NCBI GenBank assembly: GCA_963717145.1
Contig: OY970325.1
Coordinates: 1,504,001 to 1,568,000 of the forward strand
DNA from: an uncultured Armatimonadetes bacterium
GTDB taxonomy: Bacteria > Armatimonadota > UBA5829 > DTJY01
Direction of reading: 5' to 3'
Length of the DNA stretch: 64,000 bases
Part shown: positions 12,977 through 29,258 of the stretch, piece by piece
Position numbering within the stretch: position 1 is the stretch's first letter
Layout: each line of letters begins with the position of its first letter
Program-made: the position numbers and the translations under genes
Notes under the pieces: generated by a model
What the model saw: only the letters and a program-made list of their open reading frames with translations
Told to the model about the DNA's origin: nothing
Database searches by the model: none

Positions 12977-14920
12977 ATGCGCCGTGTACTTATCCCTTTG
13001 TTCATCGTCCTCATATCTGCAGGAGCGTGGGCACAAGACGCAAAGCCCGACAAGCCGGATGCCCGACTCGACCAGAAAGTCACCCTCGAAGTCAGCCACA
13101 CCAAGCTTGAGGACGTTTGCACGTACCTGACCGAAGAGACCGGAGTCACGATCAAGGCCGGGAGCGGGGAGCGGGACTGGAAGGTCCGCGAGCGCAAGGT
13201 CACGATCCAGGCGAAGGATGTGAAGCTCGATACGCTGATGAAGGAGATCTCCAGGCTGCTCGGGTTCTACCTGTCGAAGAGCGGCAAGGAGGGCGAGTGG
13301 GCGTACCTCTACTGGCAGGACAAGAAGAACCGCGACCTAGAGGCCGAGATGTTGAGCGCCGAGAAAGAGGCCGCCGCACAGCGCGCTCGGAAGATGTGCG
13401 AATCGGCGATCGATCAGGCCTCCGATGCATTGAAACTCACTCCTGAAGAGGCGCTCAAGAAGAAGAGCGAGGATCCGCTGCTGGCCTACATGGGCGGAAC
13501 GAGATCCGGGCGGGGATTCGCGCAGTTGCTGGAATCGCTCAACGGCCTCCAGACCGAGCGTGAACTCCTGATGCGGGGTCAGAACACCATGATCGAACTG
13601 AGCGGCGCGATGCTGAAGGCGGCGATGGATGCTGCTTCCGGTGGGATCATCGCTAGCGAGATGAAGGGTCAGAACAGGGAGTTTCCCGGTGACCTGGAAC
13701 CCTACCAGTTAACTATCATGCCCCTCAACGAGGCGGAGAACTTCGAAGCCGGGGTGCTCGGAGTCGGCGGCTTCATCGCAATATCGGGAGTCAATCCGGG
13801 ACAGACACCGACCACCAACGGGGAGAACCCTTTCGGCCAGGGAGACATGATGGGCATGTTCCTTCTGGCGGATCCGAATTCCAAGGTCAGCGACCTGTTT
13901 GCGAGTTTTCTGTTCGACATCGAGTCGGGAATGAGCGCTGAGGAAGCCAACCGCAAGATCAACGAGGAGATGCAGAAACCGGAGTTGCTTGCCTCTGTCC
14001 TTGCCAAGGATTCACCGACGGAGAAGGATCCACCGACCGACCCCAGGCTGACGCGCGAGGTCGAGATCAGCGACAAGATCGGCAAGTCTGCCGGCATTAC
14101 CGACCTCAATGATAGCCCGGAGAACACCGGGAAGACGATGGCCGAGATTTCGAGAGCACTCGGCGTCCCGGTACTCTTCGAGTCATTTGCCAGGCTCATG
14201 CCCGTGTCCGTTTTCGTGAAGCCGGGCAAGCAGCCGCTCTACAAGGTACTGATCGGCCTGGAGAAATGCGATCTCAACTGGGAACTCGATGACGATGCGC
14301 TCCGGATTCGGCCGCGGAACTGGGCGCTCCGCAGGTCATATGAGATCCCCGACCGTTTCATCGCCCACTACAAGGACCTCCTCGAGAAGCAGGGCGAGCT
14401 TACCCTAGATGACATCGCGGACGTGGCACTCGCTCTCACCGACGGGCAGATCGGGAACACCCTGCTCGCGGACCCCGACCTGGGTTGGCTGTTCAACTCC
14501 ATCTTCGGCGAGATGGTGGGGCAAGGCAAGACAATAGTCAGGCTGTACGGTTCCCTGACCGCGCCGCAGAAGTCGGCTCTGAGTACCGAGGCCGGGCTGC
14601 CGTTCTCACAGCTCACCGGCGAGCAGTGGGACCGAGCGAGCAGCCTCATCTCCAGCGGATTCGGCGGCGTCTACGTGCAGGACGGAAGCATTCGGTTGAA
14701 ACCTGACACCAATCCAGCGGAGACACAGAGGTCAGTGCACAACTACTACTTCGAGATCAGCGTTCAGGTAGCTGACGAAGCGAAACCTCGCATGCTGCCT
14801 GAAAGGATCTCGGTGATGGGCAAGGAGACGATCGCCTCCGTGAAGAAGCAGCGGGATGAAACGGCGGCGGCGAGGAAGAAGGCCGCCGAAGAACAGCAGA
14901 AGACCGAACCGGCGAAGTGA
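12977..14920 (+). CDS. secreted protein with STN-like (secretin/TonB short N-terminal) domains, paralogue 1 of 3
   Basis: signal peptide; DARLDQKVTLEVSHTKLEDVCTYLTEETGVTI; second STN-like segment DPRLTREVEI...EISRALGVPVLFES; colinear with the next two ORFs. Confidence 0.75.
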   Translation: MRRVLIPLFIVLISAGAWAQDAKPDKPDARLDQKVTLEVSHTKLEDVCTYLTEETGVTIKAGSGERDWKVRERKVTIQAKDVKLDTLMKEISRLLGFYLSKSGKEGEWAYLYWQDKKNRDLEAEMLSAEKEAAAQRARKMCESAIDQASDALKLTPEEALKKKSEDPLLAYMGGTRSGRGFAQLLESLNGLQTERELLMRGQNTMIELSGAMLKAAMDAASGGIIASEMKGQNREFPGDLEPYQLTIMPLNEAENFEAGVLGVGGFIAISGVNPGQTPTTNGENPFGQGDMMGMFLLADPNSKVSDLFASFLFDIESGMSAEEANRKINEEMQKPELLASVLAKDSPTEKDPPTDPRLTREVEISDKIGKSAGITDLNDSPENTGKTMAEISRALGVPVLFESFARLMPVSVFVKPGKQPLYKVLIGLEKCDLNWELDDDALRIRPRNWALRRSYEIPDRFIAHYKDLLEKQGELTLDDIADVALALTDGQIGNTLLADPDLGWLFNSIFGEMVGQGKTIVRLYGSLTAPQKSALSTEAGLPFSQLTGEQWDRASSLISSGFGGVYVQDGSIRLKPDTNPAETQRSVHNYYFEISVQVADEAKPRMLPERISVMGKETIASVKKQRDETAAARKKAAEEQQKTEPAK

Positions 14921-14962
14921 TGCTGGTTACTGGATACTGAATTCCGCAGAGGAGGAACAACC

Positions 14963-16969
14963 ATGAACCGTACCTGCTGGCTGGCAGCATTCCTATTCGC
15001 ATTGGTCGCTACATCGGCAATCAGCGCCGAGAAAGCCTTGACTGACAACGCCGATCCCCGGCTCGACAAGAGGATCACCATCTCCGTGGCCCACACCAAG
15101 CTCGAGGACGTGGTCAAGCAGCTCTTCGAGCAATCGGGAGTCGAGATCAAGGCCGGGACTGGAGCGCGCGACTGGAAGGTCCGCGAGCGGAAAGTCACCA
15201 TCGAGGCGAAAGACGTCCGGCTCGGGACCGTGTTGGACCAGCTTTCGAAGCTGCTCGGGTTCTATGTGTCCAAGAGTGGCAAGAAGGACGAGTGGGCATA
15301 CACCTTCTGGCAAGACATGAAGGCCCGGCTCCTCGAGTCCGAGATGCTGAACGCCGAGCGGGAGGCGCTCGCGCAGCGGTCCGTGGCCATGCGTCAGAGC
15401 GCACTCGACACCGCGGCGGATGCGCTGAAGCTCTCTCCTGAGGAAGCCATGAAGAAGAAGGACACCGATCCATGGTTGGCATACCTCGGCGGAACCAAGG
15501 ACGGGCGGGGATATGCCTCACTGCTGGATTACCTCGGCGGGAACTTCCCCATCGAGCGCGACCTGATGCTCAGAGGGAAGAAGACGACTTTCCCGCTGGA
15601 GAACCTCCCGCCGTATCTGCAGCAGGCCCTCGATGATACCAGGATGGGCGGCTTCATGGCCATGGCAACGGACAACATCCCACCCGAGGCTCAGGAGATG
15701 TTCAAGGGTCTCACTGCCTATGAACTCACCGTGATGCCTATGACAGGGATGGGCGGAGGAGAGCAGGAGATGTCCGCGGCCGGTTTCGGCGGCATGGTGA
15801 TGATGATGGCCAAGATGCCCAAAGAATTCGGCGGCGGGGGAATGGACTCGGAGTTCGGAGGCGGGTTCCCTATGGGGATGTTCCCGCTGAGCGGTTCGGA
15901 CACTTTGATGGGCAAGATATGCGGCAAGATGCTTCTCAGCGTCGAGGACGGACCGAAGGACGGAGACATAGGAAGCCGGATGTCGAAGACGGCCGAGGAG
16001 ATGGGAGACCCGGCGGCTCTCATTGCAGACACAATGGCCCGCGAATCCCCGACCGAGAAGGAGCCGCCAACCGATCCCGAACTGCTCAAGGAGGTGGAAC
16101 TGGGCGAGCTTCCGACGTTCAGTATGACGCAGGCGGATTCCGATTCCCCGAAGTCGATCGGCAAGGAAGTCGTCGCGATATCGAAGGCCATCGGAAAGCC
16201 CGTGCTGCTCGAATCCTTCATCGGATCGATGCCGATCAGCCTGTACGTGAAGGCCGGGAAGCAGCCGCTCTACAAGATCCTCATCGGGGCAGAGAAAGCC
16301 GGCTACACCTGGACGTTCGGTGACGGCACGCTCAGACTCCGCCCGGATGACTGGGCGCTCCGGCGCTCATACGAAATTCCCGAGAGTCTGATGGCCAGGT
16401 ACCGCGACATCCTCACGAGGAACGGCGAGTTCACACTGGACGATCTTGCCACTATCGTGATCGAGTTGACCGACGACCAGATCGACAATACGTTGGCGAA
16501 GGAGCCCGAGTTCCTGTTCCCGCTTGCGAGTCTGCGGAACTTCGGGTCCGGCGGCACCAGGGAGCTTCTGAGGCTCTATGGCAGCATGACCGGACCGCAG
16601 AAGGGGACGCTGACCGCGGATGCCGGCCTGGGCTTCTCCCAGTTGAGCGGAGCGCAGTGGGACCGGCTGAACCAGATCATCAGCGAAGAACTCGGCGGCG
16701 TGTACATCCTGGATGGCGTCATCAAGCTCACGATGCCGGGAGCAGGCGAGCAGGCGGCGATGGCCGGGATGTCCAGGTACAAGTTCGAGTTTGCGGTGCA
16801 GGTCGGCGGCGAAGAGAAGCCCCGGACGTTCTCGAAGACGGCCATGACTTACGGCAAGGCTCAGTTGCAGGAGATGCAGAAGAATCTCGACGCCGCCAAG
16901 AAGAAAGCCGAGGCGGACAAGGCCGAGAAAGACAAGCAGAGCCAGGAAGCACCGAAGACGGACCAGTAG
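14963..16969 (+). CDS. secreted STN-like domain protein, paralogue 2 of 3
   Basis: GAGGAGG RBS, signal peptide, RDWKVRERKVTI, PTEKEPPTDP, GKQPLYKILIG, WALRRSYEIP shared with neighbours. Confidence 0.75.
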   Translation: MNRTCWLAAFLFALVATSAISAEKALTDNADPRLDKRITISVAHTKLEDVVKQLFEQSGVEIKAGTGARDWKVRERKVTIEAKDVRLGTVLDQLSKLLGFYVSKSGKKDEWAYTFWQDMKARLLESEMLNAEREALAQRSVAMRQSALDTAADALKLSPEEAMKKKDTDPWLAYLGGTKDGRGYASLLDYLGGNFPIERDLMLRGKKTTFPLENLPPYLQQALDDTRMGGFMAMATDNIPPEAQEMFKGLTAYELTVMPMTGMGGGEQEMSAAGFGGMVMMMAKMPKEFGGGGMDSEFGGGFPMGMFPLSGSDTLMGKICGKMLLSVEDGPKDGDIGSRMSKTAEEMGDPAALIADTMARESPTEKEPPTDPELLKEVELGELPTFSMTQADSDSPKSIGKEVVAISKAIGKPVLLESFIGSMPISLYVKAGKQPLYKILIGAEKAGYTWTFGDGTLRLRPDDWALRRSYEIPESLMARYRDILTRNGEFTLDDLATIVIELTDDQIDNTLAKEPEFLFPLASLRNFGSGGTRELLRLYGSMTGPQKGTLTADAGLGFSQLSGAQWDRLNQIISEELGGVYILDGVIKLTMPGAGEQAAMAGMSRYKFEFAVQVGGEEKPRTFSKTAMTYGKAQLQEMQKNLDAAKKKAEADKAEKDKQSQEAPKTDQ

Positions 16970-16991
16970 CGCTGCACTAGGAGGAACGGTT

Positions 16992-18977
16992 ATGCGATGG
17001 ATAGGGATTCTGCTGCTTGTCGCCGTGGTGGCGACGAGCGTCTTCGCAGCGGACGTTGCGACGACGGACAAGCCTGATATCAGACTCGACAAGAAGGTCA
17101 CCATCTCGGTCGTGCACGCCAAGCTCGAGGATGTGGTCAAGCAACTCTCCGAGCAATCGGGAGTCGAGATCAAGGCCGGGACCGGGGCGCGCGACTGGAA
17201 GGTCCGCGAGCGTAAGGTCACGATCGAGGCGAAGGACGTCCGGCTCGGAACCGTCCTCGAGGAGATCTCGAAGCTGCTCGGATTCTACCTCTCGAAGAGC
17301 GGCAAGAAGGATGAGTGGGCGTACACCTTCTGGCAGGACATGAAGGCCCGACTCCTCGAGTCCGAGATGCTGAATGCCGCGCGCGAGGCGGTCGCACAGC
17401 GTTCCGTGGCCATGCGTCAAAGCGCGCTCGACAGCGCATCCGAAGCACTGAAGCTCTCGCCGGAAGAAGCGATGAAGAAGAAGGCTGAGGATCCCTGGAC
17501 GGCCTACCTCGGCGGAACGAAGTCAGGGCGAGGGTATGCGCAGATTCTCGGCTACCTGGCCGGCAACTTTCCAATCGAGCGCGACCTGATGCTTCGCGGC
17601 AAGAAGACGACCATCTCGCTGGAGAGCATCCCGCCGTATCTGCAGCAGGCGATCGAGGATACCAAGTTCGGCGGCTACATGGCCCTCGGGGCTGAGCACA
17701 TGAGCCAGGAAGAGTCCGACATGTATGGAGGTCTCACTGCCAGTCAGCTCACCGTGATGCCGATGAGCGGATTCGCAAGTGATCAGGACATGGCCTCGGC
17801 GGGCTGGAGCGGAATGGTAATGATCAATGCCAGGCTCCCGGGAGACCTCGCAGGCGACGAGGTGCCCCCCGAGGTGGATTCGATGTTCGGCGGAGGAATG
17901 CCTCTGGCCATGTTCCCCCTCGCTCGCTCGGACTCGCTCACGGGGAAGCTGTTCGGCAAGATGCTCCTCGCGATCGACGAGGGGATGAAAGAGGGTGAGA
18001 TGGAGAAGCTCATGGAGGATGAGATGGGCAACCCCGACCTCTTTGCGGAGACGCTCGCGTTGGAATCTCCGACGGAGAAGGAACCTCCGACCGATCCCGA
18101 AATGACGAGGGAGGTGGACCTCGGTGAACTCCCCAAGGTCAACACATTCGAACCCGACACGGATCTTCCGGAAACGATCGGCAAGGAAGTGATCGCAGTC
18201 TCGAAGGCGATCGGGAAGCCCGTGTTACTCGAGTCGTTCCTCGGATCGATGCCGATGGGCATATTTCTGAACTCCGGTAAGCAGCCGCTGTACAAGATCC
18301 TGATCGGCATGGAGAAAGCCGGGTACAACTGGACCTTCGGCGACGGTACTCTGCGACTTCGGCCGGACGACTGGGCGCTTCAACGCTCGTATGAGATCCC
18401 CGAGAGCACGCTGGCGAAGTACAGCGAAATCCTCAAGAACCGCGAGTTCTCTCTCGACGACCTTGCCGGCCTGGCCACCGAGCTTACCGATGGTCAGATC
18501 ACCAATACGCTGATGGAGATGCCCGAGTTCACGTTCCTGGTGATGAGCATGCAGTCCGATTTCGGGGGTGGAAGCAGAGAACTGCTTCGGCTGTACGGCA
18601 GCATGTCCAGTCAGCAGAAGAGCGCCGTGCAAGCCGATCCCGGTCTGGGATTCAGCCAGTTGAGCGGCCCACAGTGGGATCGGCTGAACGTGATCATCAG
18701 CGACGAGTTCGGGGGCGTGTACGTTCTGGACGGCGCTATCGTGCTGACCACGCCGGAGGCCGACGCAGAGGGATACCCGTACACCTTCGATTTCACGGTC
18801 CAGGTCGGCGGAGAAGAGACTCCGAGGACCTTCTCGAGATCTATCACCGTATACGGCAAGGCGATGCGGGAGGAGATGCAGAAGTCCGTCGACGAGGCAA
18901 AGAAACAGGCAGAGACAGACACGCCTGGACAGGACAAGCCTATTCAGGAACAACCGCCTACAGAGGTTGGCAAATAG
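16992..18977 (+). CDS. secreted STN-like domain protein, paralogue 3 of 3
   Basis: AGGAGG RBS, signal peptide, N-terminal third nearly identical to paralogue 2. Confidence 0.75.
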   Translation: MRWIGILLLVAVVATSVFAADVATTDKPDIRLDKKVTISVVHAKLEDVVKQLSEQSGVEIKAGTGARDWKVRERKVTIEAKDVRLGTVLEEISKLLGFYLSKSGKKDEWAYTFWQDMKARLLESEMLNAAREAVAQRSVAMRQSALDSASEALKLSPEEAMKKKAEDPWTAYLGGTKSGRGYAQILGYLAGNFPIERDLMLRGKKTTISLESIPPYLQQAIEDTKFGGYMALGAEHMSQEESDMYGGLTASQLTVMPMSGFASDQDMASAGWSGMVMINARLPGDLAGDEVPPEVDSMFGGGMPLAMFPLARSDSLTGKLFGKMLLAIDEGMKEGEMEKLMEDEMGNPDLFAETLALESPTEKEPPTDPEMTREVDLGELPKVNTFEPDTDLPETIGKEVIAVSKAIGKPVLLESFLGSMPMGIFLNSGKQPLYKILIGMEKAGYNWTFGDGTLRLRPDDWALQRSYEIPESTLAKYSEILKNREFSLDDLAGLATELTDGQITNTLMEMPEFTFLVMSMQSDFGGGSRELLRLYGSMSSQQKSAVQADPGLGFSQLSGPQWDRLNVIISDEFGGVYVLDGAIVLTTPEADAEGYPYTFDFTVQVGGEETPRTFSRSITVYGKAMREEMQKSVDEAKKQAETDTPGQDKPIQEQPPTEVGK

Positions 18978-19042: not shown

Positions 19043-19058
19043 TGGCACGATTCTTGCA
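19043..19058 (+). promoter_or_regulatory. sigma54 (-24/-12) promoter
   Basis: TGGCAC-GATTC-TTGCA, exact match to TGGCAC-N5-TTGCW in an intergenic region. Confidence 0.8.
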
Positions 19059-19068
19059 GGTAAGAACA

Positions 19069-19180
19069 CCAGGTGATTACAAGAGTTTTCTTCTTCTTTA
19101 CCTTTCGTGGCAAAATCGCCGGTTGGCTACCGGCACAGAAGACAGGCCCGACCGCAGACGGCGGTCGGGCTTATTTTTTT
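19069..19180 (+). ncRNA. candidate sigma54-dependent small RNA or attenuator leader (~110 nt)
   Basis: lies between the sigma54 promoter and an intrinsic terminator; pyrimidine tract ttttcttcttctttacctttc and hairpin gccggt-tggct-accggc. Confidence 0.5.
19143..19180 (+). terminator. intrinsic terminator
   Basis: gcccgaccgc-agacg-gcggtcgggc followed by ttattttttt. Confidence 0.85.
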
Positions 19181-19266
19181 GCCTGATTGATGCGGAATAT
19201 CCAGTCCCGAGCGTCTAATATGTGAACGAATAATCAGGCGATGGTGGCAAAACAGGTTCTCAGGCC

Positions 19267-19295
19267 TTGACAATTGCCCTGAAAAGTCGTAAAAT
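19267..19295 (+). promoter_or_regulatory. sigma70-type promoter
   Basis: TTGACA-N17-TAAAAT. Confidence 0.8.
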
Positions 19296-19402: not shown

Positions 19403-22348
19403 GTGACGAAGCGAAATCACCCCCGGCTCACTCACGTCTTCTTGATCGCCGGCCTGCTAGTGATGGCGGCCTGCAGCGCAACCTGGGCGCTCGGGCCGAT
19501 GGATTCACCATGGCCGATGTTCCGCCATGATTCGCGCCACAGCGCGACCAGCCCTTACGGAGACCCCACCCCGACAGGCCCCGCATGGTCATACTCCGCA
19601 GGTGGCGGACTCTCGTCCCCGGTCATAGCATCGGACGGCACGATCTACATCGGTGGAAACGGCTATCTGGTGGCCATGAACGGCGACGGGACATTCAAGT
19701 GGAAACTCAGCATCGGCGGCGGCGGTACGCGCAGCACCCCTGCGATCGCCGATGACGGTACTGTCTATATCGGAACGACAGCCGGCAGAGTCTATGCAGT
19801 GAATCCAAACGGCACTCAGAAGTGGTACTACAGCACTGGAGGGAGCGAGATCTCCTGCTCACCGACCATTGGGCCGGACGGGGTGATCTACATCGGAAGC
19901 AGGAACGCCAGCTTCTTCGCCATAAACCCTGATGGAACACTGAAATGGTCCAGGCCCACAGGCGGCGGCCACATGGGGGCGGCCTGCATCGGCCCCGATG
20001 GCACGATATATGTGGGCGGCGGGTTCAATCTATACGCCGTCAACCCGGTCGACGGCAGCACCAAATGGATGTATGTGACCGGATATACCATCCAGAGCGC
20101 CCCGGCGATGAGCCCCGACGGAAGCAGAGTCTACGTCGGATCTTGCGACGCATACCTTCATGCGGTGAACGCCGAGACTGGTGCGATGATATGGCAGACC
20201 ACGGTGCCTCTGGTCCCTGCCAGCACTTCATCCTCGCCGGCGGTCTCCCCGAGCGGTATGATATACATCGGATCGAATGGCGCATCGGCATCGATGGGCG
20301 GCGGGGCTCTCTTCGCCATCAACTCCAGCGGTGAGATAGTCTGGCAGTACCAGACCGCCTATGATGTACGTTCTTCGCCTTCAGTCAGCGCCGACGGCAC
20401 TGTGTACATCGGCGTGATGGACGGATTCGTCTTCGCTTTTAACCCCGACGGCACGAAGAAATGGCAGTATCTGACCACAGCAAGCGGCAGCGGCATCTAT
20501 GGATCGCCAGCCATTGCTGCGGACGGAAGCATAATCGTGCAGAATATCGGCGGCACAGTCTTCGGCAATCTAACCTGCACGCCGCCTGCAGCCAATGCGC
20601 CGAGTGACCTGGTCGTCACGGCGACCTCGGATTCGGCTACGAGCCTGACATGGGTAGATAACTCGGACAACGAGTTCGGCTTCCGCATTCAGCGCAGGAT
20701 GGGCACCAAGGGCGACTTCGTAACCGTAAAGAGCGTCGGCGCCGGCATCACAACCACCACGAACACCGGACTCGCATCAGGACAGACGTACTACTACCGG
20801 GTGTGCGCATACCAACAGGCTGGCGACTCGCAATTCTCCCCGGCCACGGGGATACTCATGCCCGGACTGCCCGCGCCCACCGACCTCATCGCCGAGCCGA
20901 TCACCGGCACACAGGTCGATCTGTCATGGACGGATCTCGCAACCGAGGAACTCGGATTCAAGATCGAGCGCTTCCAGGGAGTCGCCGGTCCGTTCGTACA
21001 GGTGGCGAGAGTCGGCGCCGATGTTTCCTCGTACAGCGATATGAGCGTCAACCCCGGGATCAACTACTACTACCGCGTGAGGGCATACGACGCCACACGG
21101 GATTCCAGCTACTCCAACGAAGACTGGGCGGTCACTCCCGGATTCGACTACGGCAACATCATCCGAGGAAACACTGAGAGACCGCAGATAGCGCTTACTT
21201 ACGATGCGGGCACGGCGGGCATTCGAGGAGCATTGCTCGACACGCTGAAGCAGAAACAGGTGTACTGCAACTTCTACATCACCGGATACGTTGCGCAGAC
21301 TCAGCCGGCCCTGTTGAAGCGGATAACGGATGAAGGTCACCTGATGGGCAACCACAGCATCGACCACCCGGCGTTCACGCAGATCACCGACCAGGAGATG
21401 GATCGTCAGTTGAACACGACTGACAACATCATCTACGGGCTTACCGGACACAAGACGAGACAGTGGTGGCGTGGTCCCTACGGCTCAGTTAACGATCACG
21501 TAATCGACGTGACCAGCACTCTCGGCTTCCGCCATGCAGCCTGGTCTATCGACAGCGGAGACGTGGGAGGCCGCAGTTCCTCTGCGATCACGGATACGTT
21601 CGTCGATGGTGCAGCTAACGGGAACGTGTGTCTCTCACACTGCACCCTGGCCAATTCCGAGGGCGCGGCGGCCGGTACTATCGATGGCCTGCGCGCACTC
21701 GGGTATGAACTCGTAACGGTCGCGGAACTGGTCGCACCACTCCAGGTAACCGCTCCTGCCAGCGATGTAGCCCCCGGTTGGAACTTTCTTTCTTTCCCGA
21801 TCGACCCGGCAAACACGACGCCGATGTGCACCTTCCGTGGAGTCGATATCGACGCCAAGCTGTTCAGGTGCAACAAGGAGACCGGCGTCCAGTCTGCCTT
21901 CAGCCAGACTACTCCTGAACCCTTCGGACAGCTCAGCTCCGACGAAGGATACTGGCTCTATCTGACCCCCGGGCAGAACGTCAAGTTCAACGGTTACGAG
22001 GCAACCAATGATCGGCACATCAAACTGCCGCAGGCTTGCACAACTCCTGACGGGGCTATGACAATGATCGGCTATCCATTCCAGGACCCGCAGCCGGTCG
22101 CGAACCTCATGGTCTACAACCCGAATGCTCCCGAACCGAAGCTTCGTTCCTTGGAGCAGGCTCGGAACGCTGGATGGGTATCGAGCATGCTCTATGGCTA
22201 TGACGCCGTGTATCAGAGCATGTTCATGACAGGGCTTGAAGACGACTACGTGGAGTTCACGCTGCTCCAACCGTGGCACGGCTACTGGTTCACCAGCTAC
22301 GTGAACGAACTCGAGCTGATCATACCCACCCCGGTTCAACCCACGTAG
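19403..22348 (+). CDS. secreted PQQ-like beta-propeller + 2 fibronectin type III + NodB-type polysaccharide deacetylase + C-terminal GWN..P module
   Basis: SPWPMFRHD, repeated SSP.I..DGTIYIG...NPDGT.KW; APSDL...WVDNSDNEFGF...YYYRV; IALTYDAG, NHSIDHP, WRGPYG; GTG start after AAGGGAG (ORF track starts at 19307). Confidence 0.85.
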   Translation: MTKRNHPRLTHVFLIAGLLVMAACSATWALGPMDSPWPMFRHDSRHSATSPYGDPTPTGPAWSYSAGGGLSSPVIASDGTIYIGGNGYLVAMNGDGTFKWKLSIGGGGTRSTPAIADDGTVYIGTTAGRVYAVNPNGTQKWYYSTGGSEISCSPTIGPDGVIYIGSRNASFFAINPDGTLKWSRPTGGGHMGAACIGPDGTIYVGGGFNLYAVNPVDGSTKWMYVTGYTIQSAPAMSPDGSRVYVGSCDAYLHAVNAETGAMIWQTTVPLVPASTSSSPAVSPSGMIYIGSNGASASMGGGALFAINSSGEIVWQYQTAYDVRSSPSVSADGTVYIGVMDGFVFAFNPDGTKKWQYLTTASGSGIYGSPAIAADGSIIVQNIGGTVFGNLTCTPPAANAPSDLVVTATSDSATSLTWVDNSDNEFGFRIQRRMGTKGDFVTVKSVGAGITTTTNTGLASGQTYYYRVCAYQQAGDSQFSPATGILMPGLPAPTDLIAEPITGTQVDLSWTDLATEELGFKIERFQGVAGPFVQVARVGADVSSYSDMSVNPGINYYYRVRAYDATRDSSYSNEDWAVTPGFDYGNIIRGNTERPQIALTYDAGTAGIRGALLDTLKQKQVYCNFYITGYVAQTQPALLKRITDEGHLMGNHSIDHPAFTQITDQEMDRQLNTTDNIIYGLTGHKTRQWWRGPYGSVNDHVIDVTSTLGFRHAAWSIDSGDVGGRSSSAITDTFVDGAANGNVCLSHCTLANSEGAAAGTIDGLRALGYELVTVAELVAPLQVTAPASDVAPGWNFLSFPIDPANTTPMCTFRGVDIDAKLFRCNKETGVQSAFSQTTPEPFGQLSSDEGYWLYLTPGQNVKFNGYEATNDRHIKLPQACTTPDGAMTMIGYPFQDPQPVANLMVYNPNAPEPKLRSLEQARNAGWVSSMLYGYDAVYQSMFMTGLEDDYVEFTLLQPWHGYWFTSYVNELELIIPTPVQPT

Positions 22349-22409: not shown

Positions 22410-25351
22410 ATGACTAAGCGACGTTGCTTTCGGCCCATTCAGGTACTGTCAATCGTCGGCCTGTTGGTGCTTGCGGGGTGTAACGCAGCATGGGCGCTTG
22501 GGCCCATGAACTCGCCCTGGCCGATGTTTCGCCATGACGCGCGACACAGCGCGACGAGTCAGTACCACGACCCCGTGCCAACCGGTACGCCGTGGTCGTA
22601 TACCGCAGGCGGCGGACTCTCATCCCCGGTCATAGCGACCGACGGCACGATCTACGTTGGCGGGAATGGCAATCTGAGGGCTCTGAACGCCAACGGGACC
22701 TCCAAGTGGAGCTTCTCGATAGGCGGCGGGGGAACTCGGTCCACGCCTGCGATCGCGGATGACGGCACCGTATACATCGGAACGACGGCGGGCCGGGTCT
22801 ACGCGGTGAATGCCAACGGCACTCAGAAGTGGTACTACAGCACGGGCACTGAGAATCTCGGGGTCGCCCGCAATCGCTGCTGACGGCACGATCTATATCG
22901 GCAGCAGGAACGGCAACCTCTATGCCCTGAACCCCAACGGATCGCTCAAGTGGTCCAGGGCGGTAGGCGCGGTACACATGGGATCGCCCTGCATCGGCGC
23001 GGACGGGGTAGTGTACATAGGCGGCGGTTTCAACCTGAACGCGGTCAATTCGGATGGTACGGAAAAGTGGCACTACACCACCGGCTACACCATCCAGAGT
23101 TCCCCTGCGCTCAGCCCTGACGGCAGCAGGGTCTACGTAGGATCTTGCGACGCCTACCTGTATGCGATAAACACTTCCGACGGGTCGATGGTATGGGCGA
23201 CCACGGTTCCTCTGGTCCCGGCCAGCACATCGTCATCTTGCGCGGTGTCACCGAGCGGCATGATCTATATCGGATCGAATGGCGCATCGGCGTCGATGGG
23301 CGGCGGGGCTCTCTTCGCCATAGAGCCGACTGCCGGTGAGATCGTCTGGCAGTACCAGACTGCTTATGACATCCGGTCCTCGCCTGCCATCAGCGCTGAT
23401 GGCACGGTGTACATCGGGGTGATGGATGGCTTCGTCTTCGCATTCAACCCTGACGGAACGAAGAAGTGGCAGTTCCTGACATCCGCCAGCGCCAGCGGCA
23501 TCTATGGATCGCCCGCCATTGCCGCTAACGGCAGTGTGATCGTCCAGAGCATCGGCGGCACGGTTTACGGCAATATCACGTCTACCCCTGCTGCCGCGAA
23601 CGCACCCAGCGGTTTGGTAGTCACTCCCACCGGGGACACGACAACCCACCTGACCTGGGTGGACAACTCGGACGACGAGTACGGCTTCCACATCGAGCGA
23701 AGAATGGGCACTGTTCGGCGATTTCGCCTACGTCAACAAAGTGACCGCCGGGGTAACGGTGTTCGACGATTCAGGCCTGTCATCCGGTCAGACCTATTAC
23801 TACCGGGTATGCGCTTACCAGCAGGCCGGCGATTCTCAGTTCACCCCTGCAACGGGAGTCCTGATGCCCGGACTTCCGGCCCCGACTGGCCTTTCCGCGG
23901 ATCCGGTGACCGGCACGCAGATCGATCTCTCGTGGACCGATGTCGCCGCCGAGGAGATGGGCTACAAGATCGAGCGGTTCCAGGGGCCGGAGGGACCGTT
24001 CCTGCAGGTGGCAAGAGTCGGAGCGGACCTCCAATCGTACAGCGACGTGAGCGTCAACCCCGGGATCAACTACTACTACCGCGTGAGGGCATACGACGCC
24101 ACGCGCGATTCGAGCTACTCCAACGAAGACTGGGCGGTCACGCCCGGGTACGACTACGGCAACATCATCCGAGGAAACACTGAGCGGCCGCAGATAGCGC
24201 TCACGTTCGATGCCGGCACAGCGGGCATTCGCGGAACGCTGCTCGACACTCTTCTGCAGAAAGAGTGCTACTCCAACTTCTACATAACCGGGTACGTTGC
24301 CAAGACCCAGCCGGCGCTCATGCAGCGGATAGCCGCTGAGGGCCACCTGGTCGGCAACCACAGCATCGACCACCCGGCATTCACGCAGATCACCGACGAA
24401 GAGATGGATCGTCAGTTGAACACGACTGACAGCATCATCTACGGACTCACCGGACACAGAACGCGTCAGTGGTGGCGTGCTCCCTACGGCAACATCGACA
24501 GTCATGTTCTGGATGTTACCAGCAACCTCGGCTTCCGCCATGCCGCCTGGACTATCGACAGCGGAGATGTCGGCGGCGCGAGTTCGCAGTCGATCATCAA
24601 CACCATGCTGAATGGGGCGCAGAATGGGAATGTCTGTCTGTTCCACTGCACCCTGGCCAACACCGAGGGCGCCGTCGCAGGCGTGATAGACGGGCTGCGC
24701 GGCCTGGGGTATGAGTTGGTGACCGTGCCGGAGCTTGTGGCGCCCCTCCAGGTGACCGCACCTGCGAGCGCGATCTCGCCCGGCTGGAACTTGATGTCGC
24801 TCCCAATCGAACCGGCTAATACTTCCCCGATGTGCGTTTTCCGTGGAGCCAACCTCGATGGCAAGCTGTACGCATGGACGAAAGACACTCAGAGTCTTCA
24901 GCTCTTCGACAGCTTCTCGCCGGATTCGTTCGGACAGCTCAGCTCCGATTCGGGGTACTGGCTGGTTCTCGATCCGGGCGAAACCGTGAAGTTCAACGGT
25001 TACCCGGTCACCAACGATCGGCACATCAAACTGCCGCAGACAGCGGGCAACCCTCATGGCGCAATGATGATAATCGGGTACCCCTTCCAGACGGCGCAGC
25101 CTCTCGCGAACTGCCAGGTCTATAACCCGAATGCGCCCGATCCCAAGCTGCGGACGATCCAGGAAGCTCGTGACGCAGGATGGGTCTCCAGCAGCCTCTA
25201 TGGCTGGGACTCCGCGACCCAAAGCCTCTTCATGGTCGGTTTGGAAGACGACTGGCTGCAGTTCACTGAACTTGAGCCGTGGCACGGCTACTGGTTCACC
25301 ACTTATGTGAACGAGCTAGAGTTGATCATTCCCGTGCCAATAGACATCTAG
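22410..25351 (+). CDS. second paralogue of the propeller-FN3-deacetylase protein, interrupted by two +1 indels (~22854, ~23715)
   Basis: ORFs 22410..22883, 22810..24183 and 23741..25351 join into a protein colinear with 19403..22348 when one base is removed at each site. Confidence 0.8.
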
Positions 25352-25479: not shown

Positions 25480-25495
25480 TGGCATGGTTCTTGCA
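25480..25495 (+). promoter_or_regulatory. sigma54 promoter upstream of the PEP-CTERM gene
   Basis: TGGCAT-GGTTC-TTGCA; TGT-N10-ACA at 25431-25446. Confidence 0.75.
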
Positions 25496-25637: not shown

Positions 25638-26393
25638 ATGAGGAAGTCCCTTGCCATTACAGCAGGAATCGTGTTGCTGCTCGGCCTGCAGTGCGCGAGT
25701 TTCGCAGATGCCCCTAACCCAGCCGTAAAATGGTCTCAGTTGCCGGACATGGGCAATGGACACCAGTTCTCCAGCGAGGTCAAGGTCCCGTCCACGGTAG
25801 CGGATGACTGGACTTGCCCGGACGGCAGGCCGATCACAGACATCCACTGGTGGGGCGGCTACTGGACACCTGTCGCCGACGGGCAGTATTCCCATTACAC
25901 CGACGGCCTATCGGCGGCGCTCACTCCCGGGTCGCTGCAGACATTTACGATCAACATATGGAGCGATGCCCCCGCAGGCGGCTCCCAGCCGTTCAGCAGA
26001 CCAGGGAGCATTCTCGAAACATACGTTTTCAACCTGGCCGATGTCCATGAGGTTCTCTACAACACTACAACATCGGGAAGGACGGTCTATCAGTACTACG
26101 TGGACCTGCCGGAGCACTTCGAGCAGGTGCAGGGGACGACCTACTGGCTGTCCATCCGTGCGGATCTGCCTCCCACGTCCGTGCAATGGGGATGGCACGA
26201 ATCGAACGACCATCGCGTGAGCCCCGCAGTCGAGGATTTCAAGGGCTCCGGATGGGTTCAGCTACAGAATAATCAATACGACAACGACATGGCGTTTGAA
26301 TTGACAACGATCCCCGAGCCGGGCGGACTCAGTGTCCTCTGCACCGGTGTTGTGAGCCTGGCAGCCTTCCTCTACAGACGGCGCAGAGTGTAG
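25638..26393 (+). CDS. PEP-CTERM sorting-domain surface protein
   Basis: signal peptide; C-terminal IPEPGG + hydrophobic helix + RRRRV; GAAAGGAG RBS. Confidence 0.88.
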   Translation: MRKSLAITAGIVLLLGLQCASFADAPNPAVKWSQLPDMGNGHQFSSEVKVPSTVADDWTCPDGRPITDIHWWGGYWTPVADGQYSHYTDGLSAALTPGSLQTFTINIWSDAPAGGSQPFSRPGSILETYVFNLADVHEVLYNTTTSGRTVYQYYVDLPEHFEQVQGTTYWLSIRADLPPTSVQWGWHESNDHRVSPAVEDFKGSGWVQLQNNQYDNDMAFELTTIPEPGGLSVLCTGVVSLAAFLYRRRRV

Positions 26394-26454: not shown

Positions 26455-26573
26455 CGCTAGACCTCCACAGCACGCCCCATCTCCTTGACTTTTGGCCTCC
26501 ACTGCTCTACAATTTGTCTCGGATCACGTGGCTTATTCCCAGCCCGGATGCTGGTTACAGGAGTTTCTACATA

Positions 26574-29258
26574 ATGCGAATCAAACATCTTTTACTCATC
26601 ACACTTTGTGCTCTTCTAGTCGGTACATCCGCTGCCTATCCGAGCATCGCGGATGTCATGAAAGGCAAACAGCCTCAACAGACGAAGCCCGCTCCCGCCA
26701 AGCAGGCGGCTCCTCCGGGACAAGCCGAGCTTATCAAGGCCATCGAGTTCATGAAGGCCAACAAGCCGAAGGAAGCCATAGCCCAACTCAAGATCGTCAT
26801 CCAGAAGGATCCCAAGAACATTGCGGCTCTCGCGAATCTCGCTCAGCTCAGCGCGCGGACAGGTGATTCGAAGGCCGCGCTCGGCTACATACAGACCGCG
26901 ATCAAGCTGCAGCCCAAGGACGCCCAGTTGCGCCTGATGGCCGCCGGAATCTACATGCAGTTGAAGCAGCCCGAGCAGGCCAGGCAGAGTCTCAAGCAAG
27001 CCGTCTCGCTGAACCCCAAGTTGACGCAGGCGCACCTGCAACTCGGCATGATGTATGCATCCGAGAAAAAGTATGCTGCCGCAGAGACCGAGTTCCTCGC
27101 GGTCGTCAAGTATACTCCGAACGATGCCCAGGGTTGGTACAACGTGGGCTCCGTCCGCGTGAGCCAGAACAAGTTCAAGGAAGCGATCCCTGCCTTTCAG
27201 AAGGCCTCCAAGCTCACCCCGAAGGAAGCGCACACGTACTTCGCCATCGGATCGTGCTATGTCCAGTTGAAGGACAACAAGAGCGCCGCCACCTACTTCA
27301 AGAAGGCGGCCGATCTGGACACCAAGAACCCCCAGTACATCATGGCGGTTGGAGTGGCTCATCAAGAGTCCGGCGAGTACGAGAAAGCTCTGACCGCCTA
27401 CGCCATGGCAGCACAGCTTTCGCCGAAGAACGTGGGCATTTATCTGAACTCCGGGCAGTGCTTCTTCATGATCCAGAACTACGCCGCGGCCGAGAAGAAG
27501 TTTGGCGAGGCACTTGCCATCGATCCCAAGAATACGCAGGCAATGGTGAACGTCGCTGTCGCCAAGACCTATCTCCAGAAGTACGACGAGGCCGAGACCT
27601 GGTACAAGAAGACACTCACGTTCGAGCCGAAGAACAAGACTGCCGCAAACGGTCTGGCCTACCTCTATGAGCAGCAGGGCAAGAAGGACGAAGCCATCGC
27701 GCTCTACCAGAAGATGCTCGCGGAGGATCCGAAGGACATGCAGGCTCGCACCCGCCTGGCGATGGCATACCAGGGGCAGAATAAGACCGACATGGCCATC
27801 CAGACTTACCGCGACCTCATCAACATCGATCCGAAGAACATCCAGGCGCGCGCAGCCATTTTCGAGATGCTGAGGAAAGACCAGAAGTACGACGACGCTG
27901 CCAAAGAGATCCAGCAGATGCTGGATATCAACCCCAAGAACACCGACACACTCGCCAGCGCCGCCCTGCTCGCCCAGGAGATGGATGACTACGAGAAGGC
28001 GATAGGATACTACAACCAGATCAAACAGATCAACCCCAAGGACGAGTCGCCATATCTCTCGATCGCACAACTGAACGAGACTTCCAAGAAGGATCCCGAA
28101 GCGATCAAGGAGTACGAGGCTCTCATCAAGGTCAACCCTAAGAGCGGCGCGGCATATTCCGGCATTGCAGCCATCTACGAGCGCCAGAACAAGACCGCGG
28201 AGGCCCTCGCGAAGTACAAAGAGCTACAGAAGGTAGCACCGGATCAGGTCCAGCACCTCACCAACATTGGCCGCCTGCTCGAGAAATTGGACCAGAAGGG
28301 CCAGGCGCTCATCGAGTACCGCAAGCTGGTTGCCGCGAATCCCAAGAGCATCGCCGCGAGGTACGCACTTGCCGGTGGGCTCGTCAGGATGGAGAGGAAG
28401 GATGAGGCCGTCAAGGAATACGAGACCGTCCTCAAGCAGAAGCCCGGCGATTTCACCTCCATCAACGCAATCGCGGACATCTACGCAGATACAGAGAAGT
28501 ACGACCTGGCGATCGAGCAGTACAAGCAACTGCTAGCCATCAGCCCGAACTACAGCCCCGTCCTCGACAAGGTGATGACCATGTACGAGAAGCTCAATAA
28601 GCAGTCCGAGGGCATGGACTACCTGAAGACCCTGATAGAAAAGGACACGAGCAACGGCGCGGCCATGGCGGCGCTCGGAAAGGCATACAATACGGCGGGC
28701 AAGAACGATGACGCGATCGCATACTTCAAGGGCCTCGCCGATAAGAATCCCGATCTTCTCCCGGCCAGGCACGCGCTCGTCACCGCCTATACGAATGCCG
28801 GCAAGAAGGACGAGGCTATCGCGTTTTACAGAGGGTTGCTTGAGAAGAAGCCGGATGATGGCGCAACCAAACGGGCTTTGGCCCAGTATCTCGAGGGCGC
28901 TGAGCGTTACGACGATGCGCTCGCCGAGTATGAAGCCCTGCTCAAGACGACACCCGATGACTCGTTCCTGAGTTACCGAATCGCGCAGATCTACGAGAAG
29001 CAAGGTAAGAAGGACTTAGCCATCGAGATATACAAGAAGCTGGTGGAAAAGAACCCGGACAGCGAGTTCTTCAAGACCCAGCTCGACAAGTTGCAGGCGC
29101 CGCCTCCTGCTCCGGAAGGCACTCCCGGGGCGGAGACCAAACCGGCCGAGACGCCGGGGACTGACGCCAAACCTGCTGAGACTCCGGCAGCCGAGACCAA
29201 GCCCGCCGAAGCTGCCGGCGCGACAACACCAACGGCCCCGGTGGAAGGTACGAAGTAG
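26574..29258 (+). CDS. secreted tetratricopeptide-repeat protein (about two dozen repeats) with Pro/Ala/Thr-rich tail
   Basis: 34-aa periodicity (A...Y.....L.P.N); signal peptide MRIKHLLL...; tail repeats AETKPAETPG. Confidence 0.9.
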   Translation: MRIKHLLLITLCALLVGTSAAYPSIADVMKGKQPQQTKPAPAKQAAPPGQAELIKAIEFMKANKPKEAIAQLKIVIQKDPKNIAALANLAQLSARTGDSKAALGYIQTAIKLQPKDAQLRLMAAGIYMQLKQPEQARQSLKQAVSLNPKLTQAHLQLGMMYASEKKYAAAETEFLAVVKYTPNDAQGWYNVGSVRVSQNKFKEAIPAFQKASKLTPKEAHTYFAIGSCYVQLKDNKSAATYFKKAADLDTKNPQYIMAVGVAHQESGEYEKALTAYAMAAQLSPKNVGIYLNSGQCFFMIQNYAAAEKKFGEALAIDPKNTQAMVNVAVAKTYLQKYDEAETWYKKTLTFEPKNKTAANGLAYLYEQQGKKDEAIALYQKMLAEDPKDMQARTRLAMAYQGQNKTDMAIQTYRDLINIDPKNIQARAAIFEMLRKDQKYDDAAKEIQQMLDINPKNTDTLASAALLAQEMDDYEKAIGYYNQIKQINPKDESPYLSIAQLNETSKKDPEAIKEYEALIKVNPKSGAAYSGIAAIYERQNKTAEALAKYKELQKVAPDQVQHLTNIGRLLEKLDQKGQALIEYRKLVAANPKSIAARYALAGGLVRMERKDEAVKEYETVLKQKPGDFTSINAIADIYADTEKYDLAIEQYKQLLAISPNYSPVLDKVMTMYEKLNKQSEGMDYLKTLIEKDTSNGAAMAALGKAYNTAGKNDDAIAYFKGLADKNPDLLPARHALVTAYTNAGKKDEAIAFYRGLLEKKPDDGATKRALAQYLEGAERYDDALAEYEALLKTTPDDSFLSYRIAQIYEKQGKKDLAIEIYKKLVEKNPDSEFFKTQLDKLQAPPPAPEGTPGAETKPAETPGTDAKPAETPAAETKPAEAAGATTPTAPVEGTK

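Follow-up and report, generated by a model that had tools for sequence, protein, structure and literature searches.

A 64,000-nt window of DNA from an uncultured Armatimonadetes bacterium, whose 5.37-Mb genome (G000) forms one contig, contains at positions 19043-19180 a compact unit made up of a sigma-54 promoter, a short RNA-coding segment and an intrinsic terminator (plain positions are those of the window, and C1 marks positions in the genome). The unit most likely constitutes a stand-alone small RNA (sRNA) gene, having features and conservation that were observed directly and a transcription that is predicted. The first ~40 nt of the putative sRNA are a near trans-antisense of the ribosome binding site and first eight codons of a PEP-CTERM gene, C1:4384460, located 2.86 Mb away. 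It is considered rather probable that this sigma-54-dependent sRNA represses PEP-CTERM messages by masking their start regions.

A putative sigma-54-dependent small RNA and its relatives

The sigma-54 promoter, TGGCACGATTCTTGCA (19043-19058, forward strand), was identified by direct reading of the sequence and has both the -24 GG and the -12 GC elements, spaced as in the consensus (TGGCAC-N5-TTGCA). In the window there are two instances of TGGCAYG-N4-TTGCA, compared with 0.01 expected from 100 shuffles, none of which had as many as two. The spacing typical of sigma-54, together with the point at which conservation starts, places the 5′ end of the sRNA at about 19069, giving a predicted transcript of ~112 nt (19069..19180, forward strand) supported by alignment, folds and a covariance model. 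The model, designated R1, was built from seven copies of the RNA and matched C1:1523065-1523184 (19065-19184 of the window) with 117 bits. Most of the 5′ part consists of a seed tract directed against translation initiation regions, GGUGAUUACAAGAGUUUUCUUCUUCUUUACCUUUCGUGGC (19072..19111, forward strand), which is largely unpaired, forms a conserved block in the alignment and is antisense to the C1:4384460 start region; a pyrimidine tract is evident by direct reading at 19086-19106. The seed is followed by a small hairpin, GCCGG-UUGGCUA-CCGGC (19118..19134, forward strand), with five pairs that are invariant over seven copies, and by the terminator (19144..19180, forward strand), in which a stem-loop at 19144-19172 with 12 pairs, nine of them G-C, precedes a T-run to ~19180. 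Compensatory changes between copies were found at four pairs of the terminator stem. When eight copies were folded singly, all eight showed the terminator and a loosely, inconsistently folded 5′ region of ~45 nt, and six showed the small hairpin, with a shifted stem in its place in the other two. Over a 114-nt stretch the fold had an energy of -46.6 kcal/mol (z = -4.6), and none of 200 shuffles folded as well.

The distribution of this RNA was investigated by running R1 on 11 genomes of the same taxonomic family. Members were found in three: two copies in the genome of the window, three in G001 and two in G006, the latter two genomes representing two other genera. In 41 relatives, full-length BLAST matches were likewise confined to these three genomes, and a weak R1 match in G007 (29 bits) was not accepted as a member after inspection showed the family features to be absent. 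An exact-pattern scan of public genome contigs returned 48 loci, of which three were sense-strand R1 matches, all from a single metagenome-assembled genome (corresponding to G001), and the remainder were chance matches. A similar pattern scan of metagenomes returned six loci; three matched the G001 copies, with the same R1 scores, one was not a member, and two were new, both in one metagenome, where they are an A-type and a B-type copy. In all, nine distinct copies are present in four organisms, with R1 scores of 96-126 bits, and the orthologues in G001, G006 and the metagenome keep seed, hairpin and terminator. The window copy is of the A-type, marked by a tract with an additional CUU and by a terminator of the GGCCCGA type, and has 84% identity to a B-type paralogue in the same genome (C1:3591203-3591318). 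Every family-bearing organism keeps both types.

The sigma-54 promoter is retained by five of the seven genome copies and by both metagenome copies. Sequence upstream of the copies differs, conservation starts at the promoter, and the seed is the most conserved portion of the sRNA in the alignment. B-type copies lie downstream of a conserved gene for a 287-aa secreted protein in three genomes; the other flanking genes are not the same between copies, indicating that the sRNA is not the leader or trailer of one particular gene. No terminator was found between the stop codon of the upstream gene (18977) and the sRNA promoter, and the sRNA terminator may therefore also serve the upstream operon. 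This, and the co-oriented gene that B-type copies follow in three genomes, would also fit a unit that is no independent gene, its terminator simply ending the upstream three-gene operon and its sigma-54 match and tract forming a functionless 3′ untranslated region. Such an explanation is very improbable, since the unit and its promoter recur in other neighbourhoods (A-type versus B-type, and between genera), a promoter match this good is expected only 0.01 times per window, and the copies are conserved from the promoter onward and differ before it. The original prediction for this DNA, of an autonomous sRNA-like unit with a sigma-54 promoter, a small GC hairpin and a strong terminator ending at 19180, is upheld by these results, and the tract to which it drew attention is the conserved, mostly unpaired part of the copies in relatives.

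The same prediction left a choice between a base-pairing sRNA and an attenuator or small-peptide device, the latter being suggested by a Phe-rich open reading frame (ORF) of 37 aa that begins with GTG and contains FFFF (19073..19186, forward strand, from the ORF list). For a small-protein gene, or a leader peptide at which stalling on Phe codons controls read-through to the next gene, there speak the open frame itself and the first ~10 codons, which are alike in seven of the nine copies, as nucleotide conservation requires; the common 'VITRVFFF' is a mere reflection of the conserved nucleotides, and the ORF was judged not coding. Its GTG lies ~4 nt from the predicted transcript start and has no Shine-Dalgarno sequence, the tracts of the copies contain 1-nt and 4-nt indels that break the frame, and the ORF passes through the terminator. 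Over the nine copies ORF lengths are 22, 24, 28, 37, 39, 47, 50, 55 and 70 aa, and CTG replaces GTG in one. Downstream genes vary between genomes and none is in the Phe pathway; in the window, a separate promoter serves the next gene. With neither frame nor stop codon conserved, no Shine-Dalgarno sequence and varied downstream genes unrelated to Phe, an attenuator of the PheL/PheM type was rejected and a peptide function of any kind is scarcely credible. The sRNA is the half of that choice which is supported.

Within the whole window no sequence matched Rfam (release 15) at the gathering score. The best lenient match was to MicC (25.6 bits versus 90 required, E = 0.33), mostly over the hairpin and terminator, and no Rfam match near the gathering score was found for the B-type paralogue or for the type D loci described below. 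Consistent with its earlier description as an undescribed RNA, the sRNA belongs to no Rfam family and most likely represents a familiar type of regulator in a family of its own, found in a little-studied bacterial lineage. A literature search on Armatimonadetes sRNAs returned only papers on unrelated organisms, as judged by title, and a search for matching sequencing runs found no RNA run, only three of DNA type in which 5-8% of the sampled words were present.

Complementarity to a PEP-CTERM start region

Targets were ranked by the duplex of the sRNA 5′ part with the start region of each of 4491 crude in-house gene calls. C1:4384460 was the best partner (rank 1 of 4491) for both paralogues, at -44.8 kcal/mol for the A-type and -50.4 kcal/mol for the B-type. 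This gene encodes a PEP-CTERM protein of 238 aa, with matches to PF07589 (22.7 bits, cut-off 20.7) and TIGR02595 (22.8 bits, cut-off 16). The sRNA is complementary to positions -21 to +24 of the gene, forming ~36 bp in two blocks round a 9-nt loop. The first block comprises 14 bp over GCCACGAAGGGAGG and includes the Shine-Dalgarno sequence; the second covers GAAGAAGGUUCUUGCAAUCACCC, from the G of the start codon to codon 8. Complementarity was also assessed by a block scan of every position on both strands, using a loop-penalising score with no loops inside blocks. The C1:4384460 site came first genome-wide after the sRNA genes' own antisense strands, with a score of 79 for the B-type (shuffle maxima 52-64) and 70 for the A-type copy of the window (shuffle maxima 49-62), values reached by none of 40 shuffles in either case. 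On a more lenient energy measure, the B-type duplex was beyond all seven shuffles. Reading of the duplex and site sequences showed that six of the seven departures of the B-type from perfect antisense place a U opposite a G, so that pairing is preserved, which argues for selection on the duplex.

Orthologues of the target have 58% (G006) and 52% (G001) protein identity. In both, the target DNA hardly varies between about -45 and +40, whereas the remainder of the coding sequence diverges, and the cognate duplexes have energies of -49 to -53 kcal/mol. Upstream of C1:4384460 are two sigma-70-like promoters in tandem, identical to each other (TTGACA-17-TATACT), the closer of which is ~295 nt away. 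Its leader (L101:1038-1500, corresponding to C1:4383997-4384459) has patches conserved over three genera, and Rfam found nothing in it. One observation concerning this leader is that the hairpin loop of the sRNA, UUGGCUA (19123-19129), could form 6 bp with a conserved CCUAGCC(A/G) at ~C1:4384420, ~20 nt upstream of the main duplex; this is possibly a second contact, and a match that short could easily arise by chance.

A second candidate target is another PEP-CTERM gene, C1:97829, which ranked second for the window's RNA. The A-type RNA of G006 has diverged and forms a weak duplex with the C1:4384460 orthologue of that genome (-34.3 kcal/mol); with the start region of a G006 PEP-CTERM gene 58% identical to C1:97829 it forms one of -45.5 kcal/mol. 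A 16-mer antisense to the G006 seed had just two sites in G006 at up to two mismatches, namely its own sRNA gene and that start region, where the single mismatch still permits a G-U wobble; the reversed-pattern control gave three matches. This seed and target pair is the nearest approach to co-variation found in the sequences. The ABC permease C1:4290336 had a block score of 68, beyond the shuffles, and was rejected as a target because the site falls inside the last part of the upstream gene and in G006 has diverged. Neighbouring genes, at ranks 665 to 3388 for the window copy, were likewise rejected. The original prediction had proposed that the tract pairs with ribosome binding regions such as that of the PEP-CTERM gene at ~25623. 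The kind of target proved right, with C1:4384460 as the best; the example did not hold, since that gene came only 1282nd among the 4491 calls with the window copy and 579th with the paralogue.

Several points weigh against repression of PEP-CTERM messages by the sRNA. The start, end and expression of the RNA are themselves predictions from sequence. Among the relatives, the promoter of the G001 A-type copy is a weak -24/-12 match and the G006 A-type copy has no recognisable -24/-12 promoter. Duplex energies ignore intramolecular structure, and the gene calls and the PEP-CTERM label are crude heuristics, the label being wrong in at least one case. By the lenient energy measure, one of six shuffles of the window copy reached its best value (-46.2 versus -44.8 kcal/mol); as this statistic is unexceptional, the case for the window copy rests on its block score, its rank of 1 among 4491 and the site shared with the B-type. 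The second-best match, to the ABC permease, is probably fortuitous. The core of the C1:4384460 site (about -14 to +24) is also retained in G004, G005 and G010, and none of these genomes has an R1 match to an A/B RNA, indicating that pairing with the sRNA is not the sole cause of its conservation. Type D RNAs occur in these three genomes, in two by the strict pattern and in G005 by promoter match only.

Some of these points would also be expected if the RNA were a genuine sigma-54-dependent sRNA with another role, either on other targets or in binding and sequestering a protein, for instance Hfq, by means of its U/C-rich tract, and the PEP-CTERM match were a relic, for example of an inverted copy of the gene's 5′ end. 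The ~36 bp of complementarity are far beyond the need of base-pairing sRNAs, Hfq is encoded in the genome, the lenient energy of the window copy is not exceptional, and the site core is conserved in genomes that have no A/B RNA. Decay of such a relic would not, however, be expected to leave six of seven departures as G-U pairs, a pattern that suggests selection. Nor does decay fit the G006 copy, which in diverging has acquired an almost perfect match to the start of a different PEP-CTERM gene, or a seed that is better conserved than any other part of the sRNA, and the alignment has no repeated protein-binding motifs like those of CsrB- or CrcZ-type sponges. A relic is considered unlikely, if worth keeping in mind, and masking of PEP-CTERM start regions is preferred.

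The sigma-54 regulon and type D sister RNAs

The promoter of the sRNA belongs to a class, TGGCA[CT]G-N4-TTGCA, with 26 sites genome-wide. Thirteen of these are before 12 PEP-CTERM-like genes (the genome has 62 such genes among the 4491 calls, as defined by a crude C-terminal pattern), eight are before short, terminator-ended RNAs with a pyrimidine tract (the two A/B copies and six others) and five are before other things. Such a site also precedes what looks like a tiny signal-peptide-like ORF of ~30 codons (C1:1443114, forward strand), and neither an RNA of this kind nor a PEP-CTERM gene. The predicted targets have no such site, even in a looser promoter list. The sigma-54-driven genes include a paralogue 43% identical to the main target (C1:3055465).

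The genome contains the machinery that such a regulon would need. Two copies of rpoN scored over the cut-off, settling a check attached to the original prediction, and three proteins have a Sigma54_activat domain. One of these (C1:3047978-3049156, reverse strand; 400 aa) has receiver, AAA+ and lid regions without a DNA-binding helix-turn-helix (HTH; no HTH_8 domain). It is located ~6 kb from a PEP-CTERM gene that has two tandem sigma-54 promoters, and adjoins a GAF/PAS kinase and a receiver-PilZ protein. No activator scored over the cut-off for PrsR, the best reaching 407 versus 502.6 bits. Upstream of the 26 promoters no 7-9-nt k-mer was shared by more than seven, by a crude test that is not a motif finder. 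A second class of sigma-54 promoter, TGGCAC...AATTGCT, has four sites round the second rpoN, an HTH-bearing activator and apparent flagellar genes (C1:244080-269485; C1:245951), and the class ending in TCTTGCA serves the PEP-CTERM genes and small RNAs; each RpoN paralogue may be devoted to one of these two classes. Also encoded are Hfq (101 bits), the sRNA terminator having a U-tail, and the exosortase Exosortase_EpsH (187 bits).

In the proposed mechanism, sigma-54 holoenzyme and one of the three activator ATPases would start transcription at ~19069, and the intrinsic terminator would stop it at ~19180. The first ~45 nt of the sRNA would then pair, perhaps assisted by Hfq, with messages for exosortase-sorted PEP-CTERM surface proteins at their translation initiation region, mainly with that of C1:4384460 from its sigma-70-like promoters, with C1:97829 as the second candidate. 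Pairing over the Shine-Dalgarno sequence and codons 1-8 would prevent ribosome loading, and no protein would be made. Since a dozen other PEP-CTERM genes are driven by promoters of this class, the sRNA would be the repressing arm of the sigma-54 regulon, by which one signal could turn one set of surface proteins on and another off. The features, conservation, complementarity and shared promoter class are observations; that the effect is repression, that Hfq takes part and which activator is used are suggestions drawn from them.

An alternative sigma factor only activates, and gains a repressing arm through sRNAs. RybB, MicA and MicL of Enterobacteria are sigma-E-dependent sRNAs that repress messages for outer-membrane proteins and lipoprotein. 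The arrangement proposed here resembles theirs in that the same sigma factor turns on other envelope genes while an sRNA silences envelope messages; it differs in using sigma-54 and PEP-CTERM proteins instead of sigma-E and porins or Lpp, and there is no homology. Qrr1-5 of Vibrio, the quorum-regulatory sRNAs that depend on sigma-54, LuxO and Hfq, are similar in having a sigma-54 promoter, ~100 nt, paralogues with a common seed, an intrinsic terminator and pairing to ribosome binding regions. No sequence or structure match to Qrr was found, phylum and targets are different, and ~36 bp here compare with a short seed in Qrr. The C-rich RsaE/RoxS-type sRNAs of Bacillota also mask Shine-Dalgarno sequences with unpaired pyrimidine tracts, but do so with short motifs repeated in loops, whereas the window sRNA has one long 5′ tract that covers the first codons too.

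Pxr of Myxococcus is a sigma-54-dependent sRNA as well. Others for which this is described, in the portions available of the respective reports, are GlmY/GlmZ (PMC3045617), NrsZ (PMC4253122), CJnc230 of C. jejuni (PMC11187230) and Dv_sRNA2 under DVU0679 (PMC3333781). All share -24/-12 promoters and control by NtrC-type activators with the unit described here, which matches no Rfam model, and those portions hold no link to PEP-CTERM genes. Most of these sRNAs have a dedicated activator in their neighbourhood, unlike that of the window. A connection between sigma-54 and PEP-CTERM genes has itself been reported: in the sections available, pepA of Aquincola, a PEP-CTERM gene, is RpoN1-dependent (PMC9850573) and a sigma-54 activator of Desulfovibrio binds PEP-CTERM genes (PMC3333781). 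The literature search found nothing linking PEP-CTERM genes to small RNAs, and the available parts of PMC3333781 handle the two topics separately. Beyond the sigma-54 link, regulation of PEP-CTERM genes and exosortase is poorly known. With one predicted RNA and one target that stands out, whose duplex is open to mutation and compensation, the system offers a clean testable case and a plausible logic of surface-protein switching, and the unusually long, specific match and the class-wide set of sister RNAs add to its interest.

The six further sigma-54-promoted, terminator-ended short RNAs are at C1:3764492, 3764905, 4125874, 4126070, 4341232 and 2151822, often as tandem pairs or triplets. Five of them, designated type D, contain AACAUCU.UUUCUCCUUCC, a tract antisense to a Shine-Dalgarno sequence, spacer and AUG. 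The type D pattern of promoter plus tract was found in 21 of 401 sampled genomes of the phylum, all in the class of the window, and its reversed control in none. By family, these were six of 10 genomes in f1 plus the genome of the window, five of six in f3 and nine of 28 in f4, with zero in all others; the loci in relatives are L125-L154. Type D RNAs resemble the A/B RNAs in promoter class, in starting with 'ACC.GG' and in having a terminator and a pyrimidine tract, and the longer ones among the type D RNAs also contain a hairpin with the UGGCUA motif. The invariant type D tract, AACAUCUUUUUCUCCUUCC, recurs in 21 of 401 genomes, compared with three of 11 genomes of one family for A/B, and type D is probably the parent superfamily of the A/B RNAs. 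Start regions of PEP-CTERM genes were the best partner for two of the five type D RNAs and the fifth-best for a third, with a general shift in energy; genome-wide block scores, as raw values, were 31-37. These values are no more than suggestive of PEP-CTERM genes as type D targets. For annotating such RNAs in metagenome-assembled genomes of this class, R1 and the pattern of promoter plus tract are both of use.

A bolder scheme, offered tentatively and with more doubt than confidence, is that the eight RNAs of this genome and the type D RNAs of three families form a class-wide battery of sRNAs directed against start sites, each tuned to PEP-CTERM genes that have no sigma-54 promoter. Such a battery would swap exosortase-sorted coats, for example turning C1:4384460 off while the sigma-54-driven C1:3055465 is turned on. 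Because no upstream site was found to be shared among the 26 promoters, the regulon might be fired from solution by an activator that has no DNA-binding domain. The A/B RNAs might have arisen from an inverted copy, or by conversion, of the 5′ end of their target, and an inverted-copy origin has been proposed for young plant microRNAs.

Flanking genes and surroundings in the window

Downstream of the sRNA terminator, a sigma-70-like promoter (TTGACA-17-TAAAAT; 19267..19295, forward strand) with 11 of 12 consensus matches belongs to the next gene and not to the sRNA, as the original prediction had it. That gene (19403-22348, forward strand) encodes, by domain search, a propeller/fn3/polysaccharide deacetylase protein of 981 aa. 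It is followed by overlapping ORFs of 157, 457 and 536 aa (22410-25351) that jointly mirror its domain order and may be a frameshifted or split paralogue. On the upstream side, three genes in a row encode proteins of 647, 668 and 661 aa (12977-18977) that belong to no Pfam or NCBIfam family, the middle one having a sub-threshold match to STN; the trio ends 66 nt before the sRNA promoter and has no terminator of its own. The second sigma-54 promoter of the same class in the window (25480..25495, forward strand) is located 142 nt before the PEP-CTERM gene at 25638-26393 and shows co-regulation by promoter class. Next comes PrsT (26514-29258; 314.5 bits, cut-off 312.2), which together with this sigma-54-driven PEP-CTERM gene and the deacetylase genes places the sRNA in a PEP-CTERM/exopolysaccharide neighbourhood.

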